In this document: positions 11,750-25,013 of the stretch, piece after piece | Position numbering within the stretch: the first letter of the stretch is position 1 | Layout: each line of letters opens with the position of its first letter | Assembly (NCBI GenBank): GCA_001552015.1 | Contig: CP010514.1 | Coordinates: forward strand, 150,001 to 182,000 | DNA: 32,000 nt | From: Candidatus Nanopusillus acidilobi | GTDB lineage: Archaea; Nanobdellota; Nanobdellia; Nanobdellales; Nanobdellaceae | Reading direction: 5' to 3' | Position numbers and translations under genes: made by a program | The notes under the pieces: generated by a model | Database searches by the model: none | Seen by the model: the letters and a program-made list of their open reading frames with translations, nothing else | What the model was told of the DNA's origin: nothing

Positions 11750-14700
11750 TTATTTTCCAGAAAGTATTTCCATTAATTCTTTAAATCCTTCTAATTCTTC
11801 TTTAGAAATTCCATATAATTCAGCAACTGCTAAATCGATTTTTTCTTCAACTTTTTTAAGTTCTTCCTTTGCATTAATATTTTTACAATAATCAGGTTTA
11901 TTATTGGAATATATACATTTTGCTAATTCATGAGCTCTTTCAGATAATTCAGTAATTTTATTATGTAAATTATTATCGGGGTCGAATTTTGGTATTTTAA
12001 TGATATCTATAATATGTGTTTCTTGTCTTAACTCATATGTATAAGATGCTATTATTGAACGAACTATAGTTGAATTTAAAACTCCCGCAATATAATAAGC
12101 TTCATTAGGAGATTTGGCTTCCACTAATATAATTCCATCATCAGGTATTACAGGTTTTTCATTAATAGGTTCAACAACTGCGCAAGCAAAGCTTACCGCT
12201 TTACCGGTAATGGCGCCGGCAATTCTGGTCCATACAACTTTATAGGGTGCTAAGGATGCCTTAACATTGTTCATAACATAATAAAATGGTACAGTCATTT
12301 TCTCAGCTTTATAGAATGGATACTTTTTATAAGGTGCCATTTTTTGTTTTAGGAATCCTCCACTTCTATTTATTAAATCATTAAAGAATTGATAGAAATA
12401 TTGATATGTATAAGGATATTTTGTTTTCATTATATGATGTGGAATAGGATCTCCTTCTTTATCATGTGGCAATATTATATATTTATCTTTAAACTCTACG
12501 TACCATTTCTTTATATCTCTGCCCCTAACTAATGGATAAATAAGATCTGATTCTACTCTAGCTTCAACCTGTTTGACATTTTTCTTCTGTCCACTTTCAG
12601 GCGGATTTGTTATGATTAACATACCATCGGGAGTTTTTTCAAGTACTTTAATATAATAAATCTGGTTAAGAGCTGTATAAACTCCTGCATATGCCTCATA
12701 ATATTGATTTCCGTTTATTATTTTTCTAATTGAATTTATAATATTGGGTTTAACTTGCATCCATGGTGATGTAGGATCATTAAGTATTAAAGGAATCATT
12801 GTTATTTCATAATGTTTCGTCATCTTAATGACATCTTTTAAAGATGTATTTGGATCTATTTTCTTTCCAGTCCATACAATATGTTTAATGCCATTCATAT
12901 TTTCTTTCTGTATTTCTTTAATAATTGTACATTCATTATCATTCATATTATCTAATTCACAAACTTTTTCAACAATAATAATTCCTGTTCTATTTATTGC
13001 ACCTTCAAAGGGCATTAATGTTACTAAATCATGAATAACATGTATTTTTGTTTTTCTAGCTAAGAAATTTCTAAATCCAGCACCTGCTTGTGTTTTAAAT
13101 ACTGTAAATGTTATTACAAATCCTAATTTTCCACCTACTTTTAAATATAAGTCAAAACATCTTGCTAAGAATAGCATAGATAAATCTTTTTTGAATTTAT
13201 TGATTCCAGTTTTTCCTTCAATTTCTAATAATCCATATTTTTTCCAAAGTTCTTTACTCGATTCTCTATATTGTTCAGGCAAGTCATCCCATCTTATCCA
13301 TGGGGGGTTTCCAATTACATAATCAAATTTACCCTTTAATATTGGAGCAAATGCATTTCTAATTATAGCTATCCATACATCATCTTTACCTTGTAGTCTA
13401 AGATCAAGTAATTTTTTATAAAGATCAATTAAACTCTTTTTCTCTGAAGAATTTAAACCATATGGTGAAATTCTAAATTCAAATTCTTTAGGTGTACATC
13501 CATTCTCTAAACACATTTTTATTTCGTCTAATATTTTTCTTAAAAGATCTGTATTTTGTGCAGTATTAACAGGTATTTTAAATTCACCAACTGCAGTCCT
13601 TAATATATAATACTTTTCAGTAATTTCTGCTTTTGTTTCAATCATTATAGAATCTGCTAAGTAAATTGGAATTTCAATACTTCCTAATCCACTTTGTTGT
13701 AATAGATCCGCAATGGTTAATAAATAATTTGTTCTTGCGGTTAAGACTGCTAATGGATTTAAATCATAACCAACAACATTTTCAAGTATATATTTAGCTA
13801 ATGTATCTGTTAAGTAATGTTCATTGGCATATCTTATTAATCTACTAATATAAAGTATAAGAAAGGTACCTGATCCGCATGCAGGATCTAAAACTCTAAT
13901 TTCTAAAGGTTTTAATGGATCGTCTTTTCCCATATTTTCTAAATTTTCATAACTTAATCCAACTTCATTAATTATTAATTCTGCTAACCAATCAGGTGTA
14001 TAATATTCTCCTAAATTATGTCTAATATCTCTTGGAACAAGATTTTGATATAATTTCTTTAATAAATCTCTGGCAAATTCAGGTTCTAATTGTGGAGTTG
14101 CTATTTCGTAATCAGAAAGTCTTCTTGCAATTTCAGCAATAACATCTCCTAATTCTTGATCTATTTCTTCAACATACCATGAAAAATAGTCTCCTTCTAA
14201 AAAGTTTTCAATACCTAATAATTTTTTAAATATACCACCGCTTTCTAATTCTTTTAATATATTTTTTAAACCTTCAATACCTTTAGATGTATAAGCATTA
14301 TCAAGTTCTACAATATATGATTTATAAAATCTACCGCTTCCATATAAATAAGCTATTTCGGCAGCAATTAATTTCATTATCAATGCATAATATGTATGTA
14401 TGGCAAAAATTAGAATATCATAATTAATATTAGACTTTTCAAATCCATAATCTTCTGCTAATTCTTTTAATTCTTTAAATTTATTTGGATCATAACCTGT
14501 GGCCTGTTTAAATAATCTCGTCCAATCTTCAAATAATATTTTTGTTTTTTCATTTTTTGTATTTAATAATTTTGTATAAAGTAATTTTATTGACCTTTTA
14601 GATATTTGAGAATTCATACCAAAATCTTTAGCAATTTCTTCTGCACTCAAAATTTTTCTTCTTAAACCTCTTAAAGCTTCTATTAATTTTATAATAGATT

Positions 14701-15136
14701 CTCTTCTAATTTCATAAGGTCCTCTTAATATCCATATATTATTTCTTTTATCATATCTAACAAATGCAATTTTATCACTAATAATTATTCCTAAAAATTT
14801 ATCATAATTACTTTTGTCTCCAGCTTCAGTGATTATATATTTAATAGCTTGTTCCTTTACTTTTTGAATATCGGAATCTGTTGATAATTTACCAGGGGCT
14901 TTGTATTCAATAATAACATGTCCATATAAAGCATCTACTCTCTTACCAGAAGCTAAAGTATATTCATATTTACCTTCAAAAGGTATATTTAATGGTTTTA
15001 ATATTTTTTCTTCAATGCAATTTGATACTCTAATTCTCAAATCTTCTTCTGTACGTGCTTGAAGAATTCCATTTCTAATACATATTAATATGTCATCAAT
15101 ATCAAACTGATTTAGAGAATTACTATTAGGAGGCAT
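11750..15136 (-). CDS. Type IIG/IIL-like fused restriction-modification enzyme: N-terminal PD-(D/E)xK (MmeI-like) + gamma-class N6-adenine DNA methyltransferase + C-terminal target-recognition region
   Basis: D68-X8-E77-X-K79 in RVDALYGHVIIEYKAPGKL (nt 14900..14935). MTase motif X YYTPDWLAE, motif I VLDPACGSGTFL (about nt 13862..13891), motif IV VIGNPPWIRW (NPPW at about 13299..13310). The C-terminal YPLVRGRDIKKWYV...IDLAVAELYGISKEELEGF is typical of Eco57I/TaqI_C-type TRDs. Confidence 0.85.
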   Translation of the reverse strand: MPPNSNSLNQFDIDDILICIRNGILQARTEEDLRIRVSNCIEEKILKPLNIPFEGKYEYTLASGKRVDALYGHVIIEYKAPGKLSTDSDIQKVKEQAIKYIITEAGDKSNYDKFLGIIISDKIAFVRYDKRNNIWILRGPYEIRRESIIKLIEALRGLRRKILSAEEIAKDFGMNSQISKRSIKLLYTKLLNTKNEKTKILFEDWTRLFKQATGYDPNKFKELKELAEDYGFEKSNINYDILIFAIHTYYALIMKLIAAEIAYLYGSGRFYKSYIVELDNAYTSKGIEGLKNILKELESGGIFKKLLGIENFLEGDYFSWYVEEIDQELGDVIAEIARRLSDYEIATPQLEPEFARDLLKKLYQNLVPRDIRHNLGEYYTPDWLAELIINEVGLSYENLENMGKDDPLKPLEIRVLDPACGSGTFLILYISRLIRYANEHYLTDTLAKYILENVVGYDLNPLAVLTARTNYLLTIADLLQQSGLGSIEIPIYLADSIMIETKAEITEKYYILRTAVGEFKIPVNTAQNTDLLRKILDEIKMCLENGCTPKEFEFRISPYGLNSSEKKSLIDLYKKLLDLRLQGKDDVWIAIIRNAFAPILKGKFDYVIGNPPWIRWDDLPEQYRESSKELWKKYGLLEIEGKTGINKFKKDLSMLFLARCFDLYLKVGGKLGFVITFTVFKTQAGAGFRNFLARKTKIHVIHDLVTLMPFEGAINRTGIIIVEKVCELDNMNDNECTIIKEIQKENMNGIKHIVWTGKKIDPNTSLKDVIKMTKHYEITMIPLILNDPTSPWMQVKPNIINSIRKIINGNQYYEAYAGVYTALNQIYYIKVLEKTPDGMLIITNPPESGQKKNVKQVEARVESDLIYPLVRGRDIKKWYVEFKDKYIILPHDKEGDPIPHHIMKTKYPYTYQYFYQFFNDLINRSGGFLKQKMAPYKKYPFYKAEKMTVPFYYVMNNVKASLAPYKVVWTRIAGAITGKAVSFACAVVEPINEKPVIPDDGIILVEAKSPNEAYYIAGVLNSTIVRSIIASYTYELRQETHIIDIIKIPKFDPDNNLHNKITELSERAHELAKCIYSNNKPDYCKNINAKEELKKVEEKIDLAVAELYGISKEELEGFKELMEILSGK

Positions 15137-16295: not shown

Positions 16296-16416
16296 GAGTT
16301 ACATAATTTATTGTTATCAATTATTGAGCTAAATAAATTAGCATTATACTTATACTAGATATATTTGCTAGAATAATATAATTCTTTTTAAAATAAAATT
16401 TTTATTATATCTTATA

Positions 16417-16465
16417 ATGAAGAAAAACTCATCGGCTGATAAATGATGAGGGTCTTGAGCTCAGA
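16417..16465 (+). ncRNA. C/D-box sRNA candidate 1
   Basis: ATGAAGA(16417-23)-aaaactcatcgg-CTGA(16436-39)-taaa-TGATGA(16444-49)-gggtcttgagct-CAGA(16462-65), followed by T6. Box spacing is identical to candidate 2 and both guides are 12 nt. Confidence 0.65.
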
Positions 16466-16471
16466 TTTTTT
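16466..16471 (+). terminator. oligo-T tract after C/D sRNA candidate 1
   Basis: tttttt directly after the D-like box. Archaeal RNAP terminates at T-runs. Confidence 0.35.
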
Positions 16472-18432: not shown

Positions 18433-20109
18433 TTATACTGAAAATGGTAATGATGAAGGTCCATTTATATAGAAGTTCTTCAATATTTCCCATACTTCAA
18501 AGAAATCAAATATTTCATTTTCAACCATCTTTTTTAATATTCTAGCTCTATAATCTAATATTTCGTATATCTTTCTTTTATCATTTATTTTCATTAATGG
18601 TGCAATTTTCTTTTCTAATATATAACTATTATATTTTCCAACAAACATATGTTTATCCTGTACAGAATTCCATGTAAATACGTCTCTAACAGCAACTTTC
18701 TTTAATTCTGCAATATATTTTTCTATTTCGTATATATTTGTTACTCTTCTTTCATATCTTCCTTTTACTGTTACTGATGTTGTAAATACAGCAATATTTA
18801 AGTTATCTATAAATGTAATTGGTATATTTATTGGTTCTCCAGTCAATCTTTCTATTAGTGAAGTTATATTACCTGAGTGGAATGTTGTCATAACTGGATG
18901 ACCTGTTTGCATTGCCTGGAATGCTACATATCCTTCTTTACCTCTTATCTCACCTATTAGTATATAATTTGGTCTAGATCTTAATGCTGCTCTTAATAAA
19001 TCATACATAGATACATCTGCGCTTTTTCCGACTTCTCTTGTAATCAATCTTTGCCATATATTATGTGGTATATTTAATTCAGGTGTATCTTCTACAGAAT
19101 AAACCTTTGCATCTGGTTTAATAAATGTTGTCAATGCATTTAATAATGTAGTTTTTCCTGATGCTGTTTCTCCAGATATTATTATGTTCATTCCATTTTC
19201 AATTGCTAACCATAAATATGCAGCTTCCTCTGGAGAAATTGTACCAAATGAAATTAATTGTGTTATACTTAATGGTTTTGCAGAGAATTTTCTTATTGTA
19301 AATGAAGATCCATGTAAAGATATATCTTTACCATATATAAAATTAACTCTTGATCCATCTGGTAATATTGCATCAACTATTGGTCTTGTTTCTGATGCAG
19401 GTCTATCAACTATTTGTGAATATTTAATTATATATTTATTTAAATCTTCCTCATTTTTAAATTCTCTATTTGTTTTAAGCATTCCAAATATTTTATGTAC
19501 AACATAGATTGGACCTAAACCCAATATGTGGACGTCCTCTAAATAAGGATCTCTTAAAAATGGTTCTAAAAAACCATAACCAAATCTTTCCCTAATTAAG
19601 AAATATAATAACTTATCATATTCTTCTTGATTTTTTATATATACTTTATCAGAAAATAATTTTCTTCTTTGAAAATCAATAACCTTATTAAATAGGTCGA
19701 TTATATATCTTCTTACTTCTTCAATATTATTAAAGTTAATATCCTCTATTGCATATTTAACAATTTTTGTTTGTATTTGATCTAATTTTTTCTTTTCATT
19801 ATCATTTAATTCTGGTTCTATTACATTATATATTGCTTCTCCAGATGGTAATTTATATATATGAATAAATATTGGATCTCCAACAGGATATAATATATTA
19901 AATTCAGTTCTAGATCTAAGAGAAAAATCTAGAGAAGTCATCCATTCTGGAGGCCCAATTTTTAATGATATTTCATTAACATAATTTCTAAGATGTTCAT
20001 ATTTATTCAATGCCTCATCAAATGATTCAGTTATATCATTAGTTATTACTTTTGCATTTTCCCTCTTTATTACATATTCTTCTTTTGTTTCTTGTATTTG
20101 TTCAGGCAT
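18433..20109 (-). CDS. arlI: archaellum assembly ATPase ArlI (FlaI), type II/IV secretion NTPase family
   Basis: Walker A ISGETASGKTTLLNAL, the IGEIRGKEGYVAFQAMQTGH box, length 558 aa, and position after arlH with a TAATG stop-start overlap. Confidence 0.9.
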   Translation of the reverse strand: MPEQIQETKEEYVIKRENAKVITNDITESFDEALNKYEHLRNYVNEISLKIGPPEWMTSLDFSLRSRTEFNILYPVGDPIFIHIYKLPSGEAIYNVIEPELNDNEKKKLDQIQTKIVKYAIEDINFNNIEEVRRYIIDLFNKVIDFQRRKLFSDKVYIKNQEEYDKLLYFLIRERFGYGFLEPFLRDPYLEDVHILGLGPIYVVHKIFGMLKTNREFKNEEDLNKYIIKYSQIVDRPASETRPIVDAILPDGSRVNFIYGKDISLHGSSFTIRKFSAKPLSITQLISFGTISPEEAAYLWLAIENGMNIIISGETASGKTTLLNALTTFIKPDAKVYSVEDTPELNIPHNIWQRLITREVGKSADVSMYDLLRAALRSRPNYILIGEIRGKEGYVAFQAMQTGHPVMTTFHSGNITSLIERLTGEPINIPITFIDNLNIAVFTTSVTVKGRYERRVTNIYEIEKYIAELKKVAVRDVFTWNSVQDKHMFVGKYNSYILEKKIAPLMKINDKRKIYEILDYRARILKKMVENEIFDFFEVWEILKNFYINGPSSLPFSV

Positions 20110-20813
20110 TATACATATGAAGATATCTCAATTATTAGCCCTATATTTGGCTCTACTCTAAATGGTATTAATGTATTATATATTCCCATTGGATATCTAA
20201 ACCTCTTTACTTCTATCATTTTTAATAGTGATGATTCTCCAATGGAAGAAAACCTTAAATTAAAGTATATATCTGCAATTCTCCTTATATTTCTTACAAA
20301 AAATCTATTTATTTCTGAAGGATTATATGTTAAAATAATTGTTTTATCTAGATTTTTTATTTTACTTAAAAATTCAATTAATCTTATTGAATCCATTTTA
20401 TCTAACCCATTTATTAATGGATATGATAATGAATCTAATATTATTAACTCATTTTCTAATAGTTTTTTAGATTTTTCTTTTGTTAATTCAAATATTAAAT
20501 TTTCTCTCTCCTTTATTCTATTAAATAAATTAAGTGTTGGTATAAATAATAATTTTTGATTTAATAAATAATCTTTTATATCATAACCTAATGATTCCAT
20601 TTGTTTAATAAAATCTACAACAGATAATTCTGTAGAAATATATGTTGCAGTATGATTATTTGATAATGCTCCATATAATATTCTTTGACATACTATACTC
20701 TTTCCAGTTCCATTTTCTCCTTCAATTATAAATATACTACCTTTTGGAATTCCTCCCCCAATCCTATTTGAAAATTCATCCCTATCTAAATAAATATCGA
20801 TGTATTCTACCAT
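20109..20813 (-). CDS. arlH: archaellum protein ArlH (FlaH), KaiC/RecA-like ATP-binding protein
   Basis: GGGIPKGSIFIIEGENGTGKSIVCQR (RecA/KaiC-type Walker A); 234 aa; translationally coupled on both sides. Confidence 0.85.
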   Translation of the reverse strand: MVEYIDIYLDRDEFSNRIGGGIPKGSIFIIEGENGTGKSIVCQRILYGALSNNHTATYISTELSVVDFIKQMESLGYDIKDYLLNQKLLFIPTLNLFNRIKERENLIFELTKEKSKKLLENELIILDSLSYPLINGLDKMDSIRLIEFLSKIKNLDKTIILTYNPSEINRFFVRNIRRIADIYFNLRFSSIGESSLLKMIEVKRFRYPMGIYNTLIPFRVEPNIGLIIEISSYV

Positions 20814-21199
20814 TATGGACTAATATAATATAAAGATGATTGGCCATTACAAAATGTTACTGTTAAATTATCTCCAGCATTTACTGGATAACTTACATTT
20901 AATTCTATTGTATATTGATTTAATACCTTATATGTAAAGTTAACCATTGTATTTCCAACTTCTATGCTATTTATACAATTAGATGGATTTATATTTTGTA
21001 CCAAATATAGTATTGAATAATTACCATAATTATTATAATTTACTATATAATTTACTTGACTTACAAATGTTGGATTTGTAATATTTGATATTTCTTTTGC
21101 AATTATTTTTCCTGCTGAAGAATAAAAGTTGAAAAATGTACTTAAAACTAGATATCCGGCTATAAATAAAATAAATAAGTATATTAATTCCTTTATCAT
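20813..21199 (-). CDS. ArlF/ArlG-like (FlaF/FlaG) archaellum stator-type protein
   Basis: 128 aa with an N-terminal TM helix followed by an Asn/Ser/Thr/Tyr-rich beta-type domain. It occupies the flaF/flaG slot between arlCDE and arlH, with ATGA and TAATG overlaps. Confidence 0.6.
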   Translation of the reverse strand: MIKELIYLFILFIAGYLVLSTFFNFYSSAGKIIAKEISNITNPTFVSQVNYIVNYNNYGNYSILYLVQNINPSNCINSIEVGNTMVNFTYKVLNQYTIELNVSYPVNAGDNLTVTFCNGQSSLYYISP

Positions 21200-21930
21200 C
21201 TTGTTATTGGCGATATATATCCTTTTTGAATTAGCTCATTATATAGGTCTTTTAACCTTTCTATATTATCTGAACTACTTATTTGTGCCAATTTTGTTAT
21301 TATATATAGACTTACTATATGATCCATTGGTAATAATTTTTTATTTTCTCCCTCAACACTCTTTAATCCATTTAGATATTCCTTTAATTTTATTTTTATT
21401 TTTTCAGTTATCCAATTAATTGATTCATAATAATCTAAAGCATCATCTACTTCTTCTATATTTGATTTTTTAACTAAATATGCTAGCCAACCAATTATAA
21501 TTGAAGAAACAGTTGGATTATCATCAAGTTTACTTAATGGTAATATATTATTTTCTTGATTTTCTACATTATTTTCATTTATAACCTGAACATTTGGTTC
21601 TTCTTCTTTTTCTTCTTCTACAAAAGGATTATAATTTTTTATTAGCATTTCATATATAGAAAAAACCTTTTCTAAATTATTTTTAATACTATTTATTTCG
21701 TTTTGATGGCTTTCTACTGTAGAACTAATACTTGAAATATTGCTTGAAATTTCAGATACTTTATTCTCCAATTCTCTTACACTTTTAGCTAAACCTTCAA
21801 TGGAGTTAGTAATATTTTTTATTTCAGATGTATAATTTTGACTTACAATATTTTGTTGTGGTATAACATTAATGTTTTGGGTATTTTTATTATCATTTTT
21901 CTTCCTAAATATATTTGAAAATATACTCAT
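21196..21930 (-). CDS. ArlC/D/E-type archaellum protein (FlaC-like coiled coil fused to FlaD/E domain)
   Basis: The N-terminal coiled coil ends in SIYEMLIKNYNPF (FlaC-like YE..NPF). The C-terminal LPLSKLDDNPTVSSIIIGWLAYLVKKSNIEEVDDALDYYESINWITEKIKIKLKEYL matches the FlaD/E signature (dp....l.WLefLv....ealdYY..igWIs). Confidence 0.7.
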   Translation of the reverse strand: MSIFSNIFRKKNDNKNTQNINVIPQQNIVSQNYTSEIKNITNSIEGLAKSVRELENKVSEISSNISSISSTVESHQNEINSIKNNLEKVFSIYEMLIKNYNPFVEEEKEEEPNVQVINENNVENQENNILPLSKLDDNPTVSSIIIGWLAYLVKKSNIEEVDDALDYYESINWITEKIKIKLKEYLNGLKSVEGENKKLLPMDHIVSLYIITKLAQISSSDNIERLKDLYNELIQKGYISPITR

Positions 21931-24251: not shown

Positions 24252-24322
24252 GGGACCGTAGGCTAGTGGTAGGCTACTGGGTTTGGGTCCCAGGGATCGG
24301 GGTTCGAATCCCCGCGGTCCCA
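24252..24322 (+). tRNA. tRNA-Pro (anticodon UGG), no encoded CCA
   Basis: Hand-folded cloverleaf. Acceptor GGGACCG/CGGTCCC. Anticodon stem CTGGG/CCCAG with loop ttTGGgt (G37). T-arm CGGGG-TTCGAAT-CCCCG. Discriminator A. Confidence 0.95.
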
Positions 24323-24328: not shown

Positions 24329-24390
24329 GACTCAATCTTTATAATGTTTTTGACTATAATTTTAATACTTCATTTATATTATATATTATA

Positions 24391-24439
24391 GTGAAGATGC
24401 AAGGCATTGCTGATAAATGATGAAACATCGATATACAGA
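24391..24439 (+). ncRNA. C/D-box sRNA candidate 2 (between tRNA-Pro and tRNA-Arg)
   Basis: GTGAAGA(24391-97)-tgcaaggcattg-CTGA(24410-13)-taaa-TGATGA(24418-23)-aacatcgatata-CAGA(24436-39). It shares the 15-mer gctgataaatgatga and all box spacings with candidate 1, while the guides are unrelated. Confidence 0.7.
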
Positions 24440-24482: not shown

Positions 24483-24557
24483 GGACCCGTAGCTCAGCAT
24501 GGATAGAGCGACGGCCTTCTAAGCCGTAGGTCGGGGGTTCGAATCCCCCCGGGTCCG
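24483..24557 (+). tRNA. tRNA-Arg (anticodon UCU), no encoded CCA
   Basis: Acceptor GGACCCG/CGGGTCC. D-arm GCTC-agcatggata-GAGC. Anticodon stem ACGGC/GCCGT with loop ctTCTaa. T-arm GGGGG-TTCGAAT-CCCCC. Discriminator G. Confidence 0.95.
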
Positions 24558-25013
24558 CTATTGATTTGAAATTTTAAATGGCAAAGGAGCTTGTTGTACA
24601 GTATTTCCATATGTAAATGAAAATAAATAAGATCCACTATTTGATAATAAATTACTTATAATTGTATCTTCATTTGTACAATTTAATTCAATTGTCTCTT
24701 GACTATTTGAAGGTAATGTATAATTATTTGTAACTATATTACATGTACCTTGATAACTATTTTGACTATATGTATATGTAACTTTCATATTACTTAGATT
24801 AATATTAGGTCCAGCATTATATATTATTGCATATATACCATTCGAAGTAAAGTACATATATGATATTTTAAATGATGCAGAATTGGATGATGAAGTACTC
24901 TTACCCAAAAATTTCAAAATTACTTGTGGAGGTACAAATAAATATAAAATAACAGCAACTCCTAATATAATGCCAAATATTATAATAAGGGTTGTTAGGA
25001 AGTCACTCCTCAT
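24558..25013 (-). CDS. membrane-anchored beta-rich protein, paralog of the ArlF/G-like protein (possible second FlaF/FlaG or pilin-like protein)
   Basis: N-terminal MRSDFLTTLIIIFGIILGVAVILYLF helix. It shares the ordered motifs NINLSN...VTYTY...ETIELN with NINPSN...VNFTY...YTIELN of 20813..21199. Confidence 0.45.
   Translation of the reverse strand: MRSDFLTTLIIIFGIILGVAVILYLFVPPQVILKFLGKSTSSSNSASFKISYMYFTSNGIYAIIYNAGPNINLSNMKVTYTYSQNSYQGTCNIVTNNYTLPSNSQETIELNCTNEDTIISNLLSNSGSYLFSFTYGNTVQQAPLPFKISNQ

Follow-up and report, generated by a model that had tools for sequence, protein, structure and literature searches.

The window analysed here, 32,000 nucleotides (nt) of Candidatus Nanopusillus acidilobi (contig CP010514.1, positions 150,001 to 182,000 of the forward strand), contains two intergenic loci on its plus strand that have the same arrangement of short boxes and 12-nt spacers. 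Read from the sequence, locus 1 (16417-16465) consists of the C box AUGAAGA (16417-16423), the D' guide AAAACTCATCGG (16424-16435), the D' box CUGA (16436-16439), a D'-C' loop (16440-16442), the C' box AUGAUGA (16443-16449), the D guide GGGTCTTGAGCT (16450-16461) and the D box CAGA (16462-16465). In locus 2 (24391-24439) the C box GUGAAGA (24391-24397), the D' guide TGCAAGGCATTG (24398-24409), the D' box CUGA (24410-24413), the D'-C' loop (24414-24416), the C' box AUGAUGA (24417-24423), the D guide AACATCGATATA (24424-24435) and the D box CAGA (24436-24439) follow each other in the same order. Written as DNA the loci are ATGAAGA-AAAACTCATCGG-CTGA-TAAA-TGATGA-GGGTCTTGAGCT-CAGA and GTGAAGA-TGCAAGGCATTG-CTGA-TAAA-TGATGA-AACATCGATATA-CAGA, both with the exact 7-12-4-3-7-12-4 layout and with the GA dinucleotides intact. 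A first-pass annotation of this DNA had described them as two C/D box small RNA (sRNA) candidates sharing RTGAAGA-N12-CTGA-TAAA-TGATGA-N12-CAGA, with canonical D' and C' boxes and four guides unrelated to each other, and in all of this, including the coordinates and the 12-nt spacers, it was correct. We consider it very likely that both loci are archaeal box C/D sRNAs, that sRNA 1 uses its D guide on C34 of tRNA-Leu(CAA) and sRNA 2 acts on 23S rRNA, and that the A•A pair of their terminal boxes is a covarying alternative to U•U which an ordinary L7Ae accepts.

In the proposed mode of action boxes C and D would form a terminal kink-turn (k-turn) and boxes D' and C' an internal k-loop, L7Ae would bind each of these motifs and then recruit Nop5 and fibrillarin, and each 12-nt guide would pair with its target RNA, where the nucleotide facing the fifth guide base before D or D' (N+5) would receive a 2'-O-methylation. 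The boxes of both loci are capable of a k-turn with tandem sheared G•A pairs, as RUGAAGA and CAGA retain the purine, both GA dinucleotides and the G6-C1 pair, and the sole change lies at the position called 3b:3n, which is A•A instead of U•U. The internal CUGA-UAA-AUGAUGA is present in both loci and, apart from the loop, unchanged in all orthologues, as expected for a k-loop, and the guide length of 12 nt typical of a C/D spacer is found in all four guides and in all orthologues.

A relaxed pattern, which left position 5 of the C box and position 2 of the D box free and accepted guides of 10-14 nt and a loop of 2-8 nt, matched the window at these two sites alone when both strands were scanned, and it had no match in 300 first-order Markov shuffles of the window. 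The central 14-mer CTGATAAATGATGA occurs exactly twice in the window, and as it is not significant by itself once two mismatches are allowed (expected 1.2), the full architecture and not the shared word carries the evidence. That this word is no rarer than chance, and that the window has only 23% G+C, could speak for chance matches or copies of a short AT-rich repeat without any RNA function. The comparative data have already refuted this explanation, to which we assign a negligible probability: besides the 0/300 shuffles, syntenic orthologues across genera keep the guide cores and boxes, an 11-bp match sets a tRNA wobble base exactly at N+5, and the base upstream of the C box, although unspecified in the search pattern, is a purine in archaeal matches. 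The first-pass view of C/D sRNA genes rather than a simple repeat is therefore upheld by the shuffles, by the conservation of boxes and guide cores and by the tRNA pairing.

Syntenic orthologues of locus 1 are present in Nanopusillus and Nanobsidianus metagenome-assembled genomes (MAGs), in strain YN1, in Nanobdella and in Nanoclepta, the last three being 90-94% identical with changes at the guide ends and in the loop only. For locus 2, Nanopusillus MAGs, KM4331-08 and Nanobdella have syntenic orthologues (88-96% identical), always with tRNA-Pro on one side and tRNA-Arg on the other, and four Candidatus Nanopusillus MAGs contain exactly its sequence. When genera are compared, the 49-nt bodies show 88-96% identity, and no changes are seen in the four boxes or in the guide cores ACTCATCG, GGTCTTGAGC, GCAAGGCATT and ACATCGAT; the substitutions are confined to the D'-C' loop and the first or last guide positions, and the flanks diverge. 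Such invariant boxes and cores next to a drifting loop and drifting ends are the pattern of a guide RNA and not of a repeat or a protein-coding fragment.

The closest known relatives are the C/D sRNAs of Nanoarchaeum equitans (Randau 2012, Genome Biol 13:R63), above all sRNA8, 9, 14, 16, 17, 19, 21 and 23, which show the same compact layout with 12-nt guides, a D'-C' loop of 3-4 nt and unpaired termini as well as the boxes C RUGAAGA, D' CUGA, C' RUGAUGA (GUGAAGA in sRNA21) and D CAGA. These sRNAs are verified by RNA-seq and abundant, those with identical boxes having >3000 reads each; several adjoin tRNA genes, and in some cases a separate box-A promoter and T-stretch terminator are present (Randau 2012). 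They differ from the sRNAs described here in belonging to another organism, in most of their guides and in that about a third of their terminal motifs are A•A, compared to every sRNA found here.

The D'-loop-C' segment is the same in loci 1 and 2 within one genome (window 16436-16449 and 24410-24423; fetched locus L004 9530-9578 and 20026-20074; L numbers designate fetched loci), the loop being TAAA at both loci in Nanopusillus and GATA at both in Nanobdella. The agreement may be due to gene conversion of the core outside the guides or to selection acting on the loop, and with two genomes it may also be a coincidence.

Upstream of both C boxes we found a putative promoter element on the plus strand. 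For locus 1 this is the box-A (TATA-like) element TTTAAAA (16387-16393), centred ~27 nt upstream of the C box, and for locus 2 the box-A-like element TTTTAATA (24360-24367), centred at about the same distance of ~27 nt. A T6 run directly after box D of locus 1 (16466-16471, plus strand) is a likely archaeal terminator. TTTAAAA is kept in six Nanopusillus/Nanobsidianus orthologues of locus 1 while the sequence farther upstream diverges, T5-T6 follows box D in all nine locus 1 orthologues, and the box A of locus 2 is kept as (A)TTTTAA(T/C)A in its Nanopusillus orthologues. The position of box A and the T-runs agree with the signals of N. equitans, for which a box A consensus TTTAAA at -26/-27 and T-stretch terminators have been reported (Randau 2012, Genome Biol 13:R63). 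The neighbours of sRNA 2 are tRNA-Pro(UGG) upstream (24252-24322, plus strand) and tRNA-Arg(UCU) downstream (24483-24558, plus strand), and as tRNA-Pro has its own T6 run, locus 2 is presumably transcribed independently and not as a tRNA-sRNA dicistron. Both loci would be independently transcribed sRNA genes of ~50 nt.

For sRNA 1, the complement of the D guide, AGCUCAAGACCC, resembles the anticodon loop CU-CAA-GA, and a tRNA-Leu(CAA) adjoining apgM in a Nanoarchaeota MAG (L104) matches this guide. Using the synteny with apgM, tRNA-Leu(CAA) was then sought in Nanobdella, YN1 and KM4331-08 and is present in all three. The YN1 guide forms 11 contiguous Watson-Crick pairs with the YN1 tRNA-Leu(CAA), in such a way that the fifth guide nucleotide counted back from box D faces the first base of the anticodon, and the D guide of the window is paired at 12/12 positions with the tRNAs of YN1 and KM4331-08 (11 Watson-Crick pairs and one G-U), compared to the 9 bp or more expected of a guide with its target at N+5. 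None of 2000 shuffled D guides reached 11 pairs against 42 Nanopusillaceae tRNAs, the maximum being 9. In Nanobdella the anticodon stem has diverged and the pairing consists of seven Watson-Crick pairs, a G-U and one further Watson-Crick pair. Given this pairing, it is well supported that the D guide of sRNA 1 would direct the 2'-O-methylation of C34 (Cm34) at the wobble position of tRNA-Leu(CAA); for Pyrococcus the same C34 has been predicted earlier as a C/D target.

The core GGUCUUGAG of this D guide is also present in two sRNAs of other archaea, the D' guide AGGUCUUGAGCC of N. equitans sR12 and the D guide AGGUCUUGAGUA of Sulfolobus acidocaldarius sR108, but in sR12 it stands at the D' position with the boxes UGAUGA/AUGA and in sR108 the adjoining boxes are UGAGGA/CUGA. 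The published PLEXY target of sR12 (AE017199.1 315990-316045; Randau 2012, Additional file 2) is position 17 of 23S rRNA, a weak match with G-U pairs. As the D' guide of sR12 complements the anticodon loop of nanoarchaeal tRNA-Leu(CAA) perfectly over 11 nt (11 Watson-Crick pairs) with C34 at N+5, tRNA-Leu(CAA) fits much better and the published 23S target is probably wrong.

The gene order tRNA-Leu(CAA) - apgM - S3 - L22 is kept from MAG MC-1 to Nanobdella, YN1 and KM4331-08 (L104 243-412; L125 9866-11236; L126 9877-11239; L127 9854-11239). In MC-1 an additional sRNA of the A•A type, GTGAAGA-TGCCGAGGACAG-CTGA...CAGA, lies between tRNA-Leu(CAA) and apgM.

The guides of sRNA 2 were compared with 23S rRNA in the seven-species alignment from the supplement of Dennis et al. 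2015, which holds rRNA from archaea other than Nanopusillaceae; in the 127 fetched loci no universal rRNA motifs or G+C-rich islands were found. The core of the D' guide exactly complements AAUGCCUUGC within the archaeal 23S consensus CAAAUGCCUUGCCGG, corresponding to E. coli 1936-1947 (counted from the E. coli row). Within the conserved AAAUGCCUUGCC stretch the N+5 rule points to the G of archaea that corresponds to E. coli 1940. This region is dense in methylations in archaea, and Sulfolobus sR125 as well as sRNAs of Pyrobaculum, Thermoproteus and Ignicoccus are annotated on it (Dennis et al. 2015). The D guide of sR125, AAAGGCAUUUGU, targets the same stretch (CAAAUGCCUU) as the D' guide of locus 2 with the register moved by a few nt, and a Woesearchaeota sRNA with canonical boxes has nearly the same guide as the D' guide of sRNA 2. 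For the D guide, the KM4331-08 orthologue GACATCGATGTA is a 12/12 complement of UACAUCGAUGUC in S. acidocaldarius 23S rRNA (E. coli 2496-2507) with U2500 at N+5. Most likely sRNA 2 would therefore methylate 23S rRNA at two sites in functional centres, plausibly the G1940 equivalent and U2500 of the peptidyl-transferase loop. Another candidate target of the D' guide, the anticodon arm of tRNA-Ala(UGC), was rejected, as it offers 8 bp only, a value equalled by 86 of 2000 shuffles, and the 23S site fits better.

A further Nanopusillaceae sRNA family has a D' guide (TATCGATGTCGA / AAAGAGGGTAAT) to which the D guide AACATCGATATA of locus 2 (window 24424-24435) is complementary; the family is represented by L023 1213-1261, L025 3198-3247 and L076 1046-1094 (all minus strand) and by L093 4702-4750 (plus strand). 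The apparent target of both guides is ACAUCGAUGU, a palindromic 23S segment of the peptidyl-transferase loop, and the methylations are predicted at E. coli 2500 and 2498. The L093 orthologue of the further family has canonical boxes and a guide moved by 6 nt, with C2498 still at N+5.

Several points weigh against the assignment of both loci as functional C/D sRNAs with these targets. At gathering thresholds neither locus reaches any C/D family of Rfam and tRNAs alone pass. In a permissive search both give full-length but sub-threshold matches on the plus strand, mainly to Pyrococcus C/D families, the best one for locus 1 being sR14 with 21.3 bits compared to a threshold of 38 (E = 3.6e-4), and sR9 scoring 16.2 bits; such low scores are expected because the Pyrococcus family models encode other guides. 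The window and the fetched loci contain none of the genes for L7Ae, Nop5 and fibrillarin; N. equitans has fibrillarin (NEQ125) and Nop56 (NEQ342) (Randau 2012, Genome Biol 13:R63). Expression and the ends of both RNAs are predictions. Both 23S assignments are based on the rRNA of other archaea, and the window D guide AACATCGATATA itself matches Sulfolobus 23S rRNA at 10/12 positions, with one mismatch lying two nt away from the nucleotide predicted to be methylated. For the D' guide of sRNA 1 (core ACTCATCG) the comparisons showed no convincing target, with 6-7 bp formed with the tRNA-Leu(CAA) of Nanopusillaceae. As this guide forms 10 bp with tRNA-Leu(UAG) of N. equitans, another tRNA-Leu isoacceptor may be its target, and orphan guides are common among archaeal sRNAs. 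A composite 20-mer GCTCAAGACCCGATGAGTTT, predicted for the case that both locus 1 guides act on one tRNA-Leu(CAA), had no match in viral contigs and a single one in metagenomes, judged to be chance because it lies on a contig of 65% G+C without a tRNA. The real tRNAs confirmed the D guide part of this composite and rejected its D' part with the same 6-7 bp. The sequence expected in the target RNA of the D' guide is CGAUGAGU, and an exact 12-mer target match at L046:871 lies in AT-rich intergenic DNA and was dismissed as chance. In sum, the expectation that the guides pair with tRNA or rRNA was borne out for the D guide of sRNA 1 with tRNAs of its own lineage and for both guides of sRNA 2 with the 23S rRNA of other archaea, and failed for the D' guide of sRNA 1.

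The terminal boxes of both loci deviate from the archaeal consensus at C-box position 5 and D-box position 2. As stated in the first-pass annotation, these positions face each other next to the sheared G•A pairs and normally form U•U: in the k-turn they correspond to the 3b:3n pair, for which archaeal and human box C/D strongly prefer U:U (Ashraf et al. 2017). Also its proposal of a consistent double change agrees with the known sRNAs. In 24 parsed, RNA-seq-verified sRNAs of N. equitans the terminal C5/D2 combination is U/U in 14, A/A in eight, A/U in two and U/A in none (Fisher p 6e-5), and internally C'5/D'2 is U/U in 15, A/A in four, A/U in three, A/C in one and C/U in one, giving a Fisher p of 1.6e-7 when both motifs are pooled; none of the 24 has A/A in both. 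For S. acidocaldarius a strict parse of 61 sRNAs with sequences from Dennis et al. 2015 gave 44 U/U, 3 A/A, 3 A/U, 1 U/A and 7 other terminal motifs and 9 U/U, 4 A/A, 4 A/U and 9 other internal ones (pooled 2x2 table with the rows 53, 1 and 7, 7; Fisher p = 2.5e-5), with the lone U/A case being a mis-parse whose true D box CUGA lies 3 nt downstream. Thus terminal A•A rises from ~5% in S. acidocaldarius (about 3/58) to a third in N. equitans (8/24) and nearly all Nanopusillaceae sRNAs found, and A•A motifs always occur in a genome, and usually in the same RNA, together with U•U motifs. The Sulfolobus sRNAs sR125, sR12 and sR14 (Dennis et al. 2015) combine a terminal UGAAGA/CAGA k-turn with a canonical internal motif as the loci described here do, but such A•A sRNAs are a small minority of about 5% of the set. 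In Methanopyrus kandleri many sRNAs combine UGAGGA or UGACGA with CCGA, which places G or C at 3b and C at 3n (Dennis et al. 2015, Additional file 1), and therefore other archaeal lineages too have their own preferred 3b:3n pair.

One genome per GTDB species was scanned with TGAAGA-N12-CTGA-N3-6-TGATGA-N11-13-CAGA, which yielded at least 118 blocks, at least 44 from Nanoarchaeota, at least 48 from other archaea and at least 26 from bacteria. The matches listed include conserved A•A families of Vulcanisaeta and other Thermoproteales, Desulfurococcaceae and Sulfolobaceae, with further A•A matches in Woesearchaeota, Micrarchaeota, Thermococcus, Archaeoglobaceae and others. The unspecified base before TGAAGA is a purine in 31/31 Nanoarchaeota, 46/47 other archaea and 10/21 bacteria among these matches, a bias which shows the archaeal matches to be real C boxes and the bacterial ones noise. 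A bacterial control of 183 kb contained no sRNA candidates. Among the bacterial chance matches, four Neisseria contigs (L017, L087, L115, L120) share a near-identical sequence with GTCGTCTGAA, which resembles the Neisseria DNA uptake sequence and so points to a repeat-driven false positive. In ~137 kb of Nanopusillaceae DNA outside the pattern selection, a sample and not a complete count, only the families of loci 1 and 2 were found, all with terminal A/A, and the additional sRNAs in pattern-selected blocks have internal A/A in 3/4 cases compared to 0/10 in other archaea. The idea that UGAAGA/CAGA is the norm of the lineage therefore stands in that it is nearly the rule among the Nanopusillaceae sRNAs found, and falls in that it recurs in other archaea: A•A is rare in most archaea and strongly enriched in Nanoarchaeota but not unique to them, a recurrent archaeal variant already contained in published sequences, and it neither replaces the canonical boxes throughout the lineage nor is absent elsewhere.

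The clearest case of concerted change is a third sRNA family with the D' guide ACATCGGTTCTT, always divergent from tRNA-Ala(GGC), whose five syntenic orthologues show three box states: all canonical (L015 3506-3555, plus strand), internal A/A (L023 2675-2723 and L076 2921-2970, both minus strand) and terminal A/A (L011 978-1026, minus strand; L093 3525-3573, plus strand). All four positions switch in concert.

These data bear directly on the suggestion of the first-pass annotation that the A•A pair marks a lineage-specific k-turn recognition, with an L7Ae that has co-evolved with a new box consensus. In its favour, A•A is far commoner in Nanoarchaeota, every sRNA in the ~137 kb of unselected Nanopusillaceae DNA has it in the terminal motif, the 8/24 of N. 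equitans compare with about 3/58 in Sulfolobus, and published logos give U:U as the archaeal norm. However, every A•A sRNA also has a canonical U•U motif that would bind the same L7Ae, orthologues with canonical boxes only or with internal A•A exist within the Nanopusillaceae (L015, L023, L076), conserved A•A families are found among the matches listed in Vulcanisaeta, Desulfurococcaceae, Sulfolobaceae, Woesearchaeota, Micrarchaeota and Thermococcus, and Sulfolobus expresses its A•A sRNAs sR12, sR14 and sR125. As A•A and U•U coexist, also in distant archaea, one ordinary L7Ae must accept both and no special recognition is needed, so that the suggestion is already largely refuted and appears to us very improbable.

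How an A•A pair behaves in a k-turn can be estimated from the standard k-turn, where 3b:3n, corresponding to C position 5 and D position 2 here, decides on folding and on the N3 or N1 class: folding by metal ions requires G at 3n or C at 3b, and purines at 3b tend towards the N3 class (McPhee 2014; Huang 2016; Ashraf 2017). Box C/D k-turns are tuned to fold only upon L7Ae binding (McPhee 2014; Huang 2016; Ashraf 2017). From these rules, and as U•U is also N3, A•A would be expected to keep the protein-dependent folding of box C/D. The papers from the Lilley laboratory describe box C/D as strongly U:U, whereas the terminal motif here is A:A, and in the literature searched we found no description of the UGAAGA/CAGA covariation or of an A:A alternative in box C/D, although the sequences have been public since 2012.

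The high A•A frequency of the Nanopusillaceae may result from the neutral history of a small gene family or from a function of two unlike k-motifs per RNA. We lean towards A•A being a selectively neutral equivalent of U•U, its frequency having arisen by descent or gene conversion in the small gene set of a reduced genome: the D'-loop-C' part is common to loci 1 and 2 within a genome and different between genomes, which suggests that the parts outside the guides evolve in concert, families of orthologues change from one state to another, and the 3b:3n rules would predict a U•U-like behaviour, since A•A has neither 3n = G nor 3b = C. The loop coincidence, coming from two genomes, is weak evidence, and the strict keeping of homotypic pairs together with the near-absence of U/A shows that selection acts on the pair itself. 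In the other view, one A•A and one U•U motif per RNA would be functional, favouring the pairing of C with D and of C' with D' or an asymmetric assembly of the ribonucleoprotein (RNP). A wrong pairing of the boxes would give 3b:3n the Watson-Crick pair A-U, the combination U(C5)/A(D2) is practically absent, and in the ACATCGGTTCTT family the transfer of A•A from the internal motif to the terminal one involved all four positions at once. Nanoarchaeal sRNA termini are moreover unpaired (Randau 2012), and therefore the choice of the partner rests on the boxes alone. Exactly one A•A motif is found in 12/24 parsed N. equitans sRNAs and in nearly all Nanopusillaceae sRNAs, and two in none; the Nanopusillaceae blocks also contain no double A•A, but there the selection pattern fixed the internal motif as canonical, which left hardly any chance of detecting one. 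Against such a function, ~1.3 double A•A sRNAs would be expected in N. equitans from 8/24 terminal and 4/24 internal motifs, a number from which zero does not differ significantly, motifs of the A(C5)/U(D2) type exist (5/48 in N. equitans), and U•U/U•U sRNAs, half of those in N. equitans and the majority in Sulfolobus, evidently function. We consider this second view unlikely, and it is equally doubtful that the k-motifs of Nanoarchaeota are deliberately unlike and never both A•A, which would amount to an undescribed sequence code for the choice of the box partner or to a fixed order of RNP assembly.

With the two loci, two real non-coding RNA genes are annotated where Rfam reports only tRNAs, and sRNA 1 is given a concrete and testable target in Cm34 of tRNA-Leu(CAA). 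They are new members of the archaeal C/D box sRNA class and represent neither a new mechanism nor a new RNA class. UGAAGA/CAGA is a genuine covarying alternative to UGAUGA/CUGA across Archaea, and search models restricted to the canonical boxes would therefore miss most of the sRNAs of Nanopusillaceae. In N. equitans snoscan failed on seven sRNAs and eight table rows are given as 'no prediction' (Randau 2012); of these eight, four show the complete terminal pair UGAAGA/CAGA and a further two combine UGAAGA with CUGA. To k-turn biology the loci add a natural and often used A:A at the 3b:3n position of box C/D, which has been little remarked though public in sequence.

The window has a G+C content of 21-29% (overall 23%) and codes for ribosomal protein L3, MetRS, a class Ib aminoacyl-tRNA synthetase, Trm5/Tyw2 and the archaellum ATPase FlaI. 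Its L3 is 93% identical to that of a Candidatus Nanopusillus MAG contig, 77% to those of strain YN1 and a Nanopusillaceae MAG and 68% to that of Nanobdella aerobiophila; a look-up of the exact L3 protein gave no recorded entry. Upstream of sRNA 1 lies a gene for a 1128-aa Eco57I/MmeI-type restriction-modification fusion (window 11750-15136, minus strand); the corresponding place in the 93%-related contig is taken by a glycosyltransferase (L001 17834-18769), with still other neighbours in YN1 and Nanobdella, and sRNA 1 is therefore located at a synteny breakpoint, as reported for N. equitans sRNAs. Between both sRNA loci an archaellum cluster (FlaC/D/E-like, FlaH-like ATPase, FlaI; window 18433-21930, minus strand) is kept in all relatives examined. 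In YN1 the FlaI-type ATPase has 1043 aa compared to 557-559 aa in the relatives (L002 14098-17229), and the ribonucleotide reductase of the same strain has 1649 aa with matches to intein and LAGLIDADG domains (L126 2794-7743), which suggests intein insertions in both proteins.

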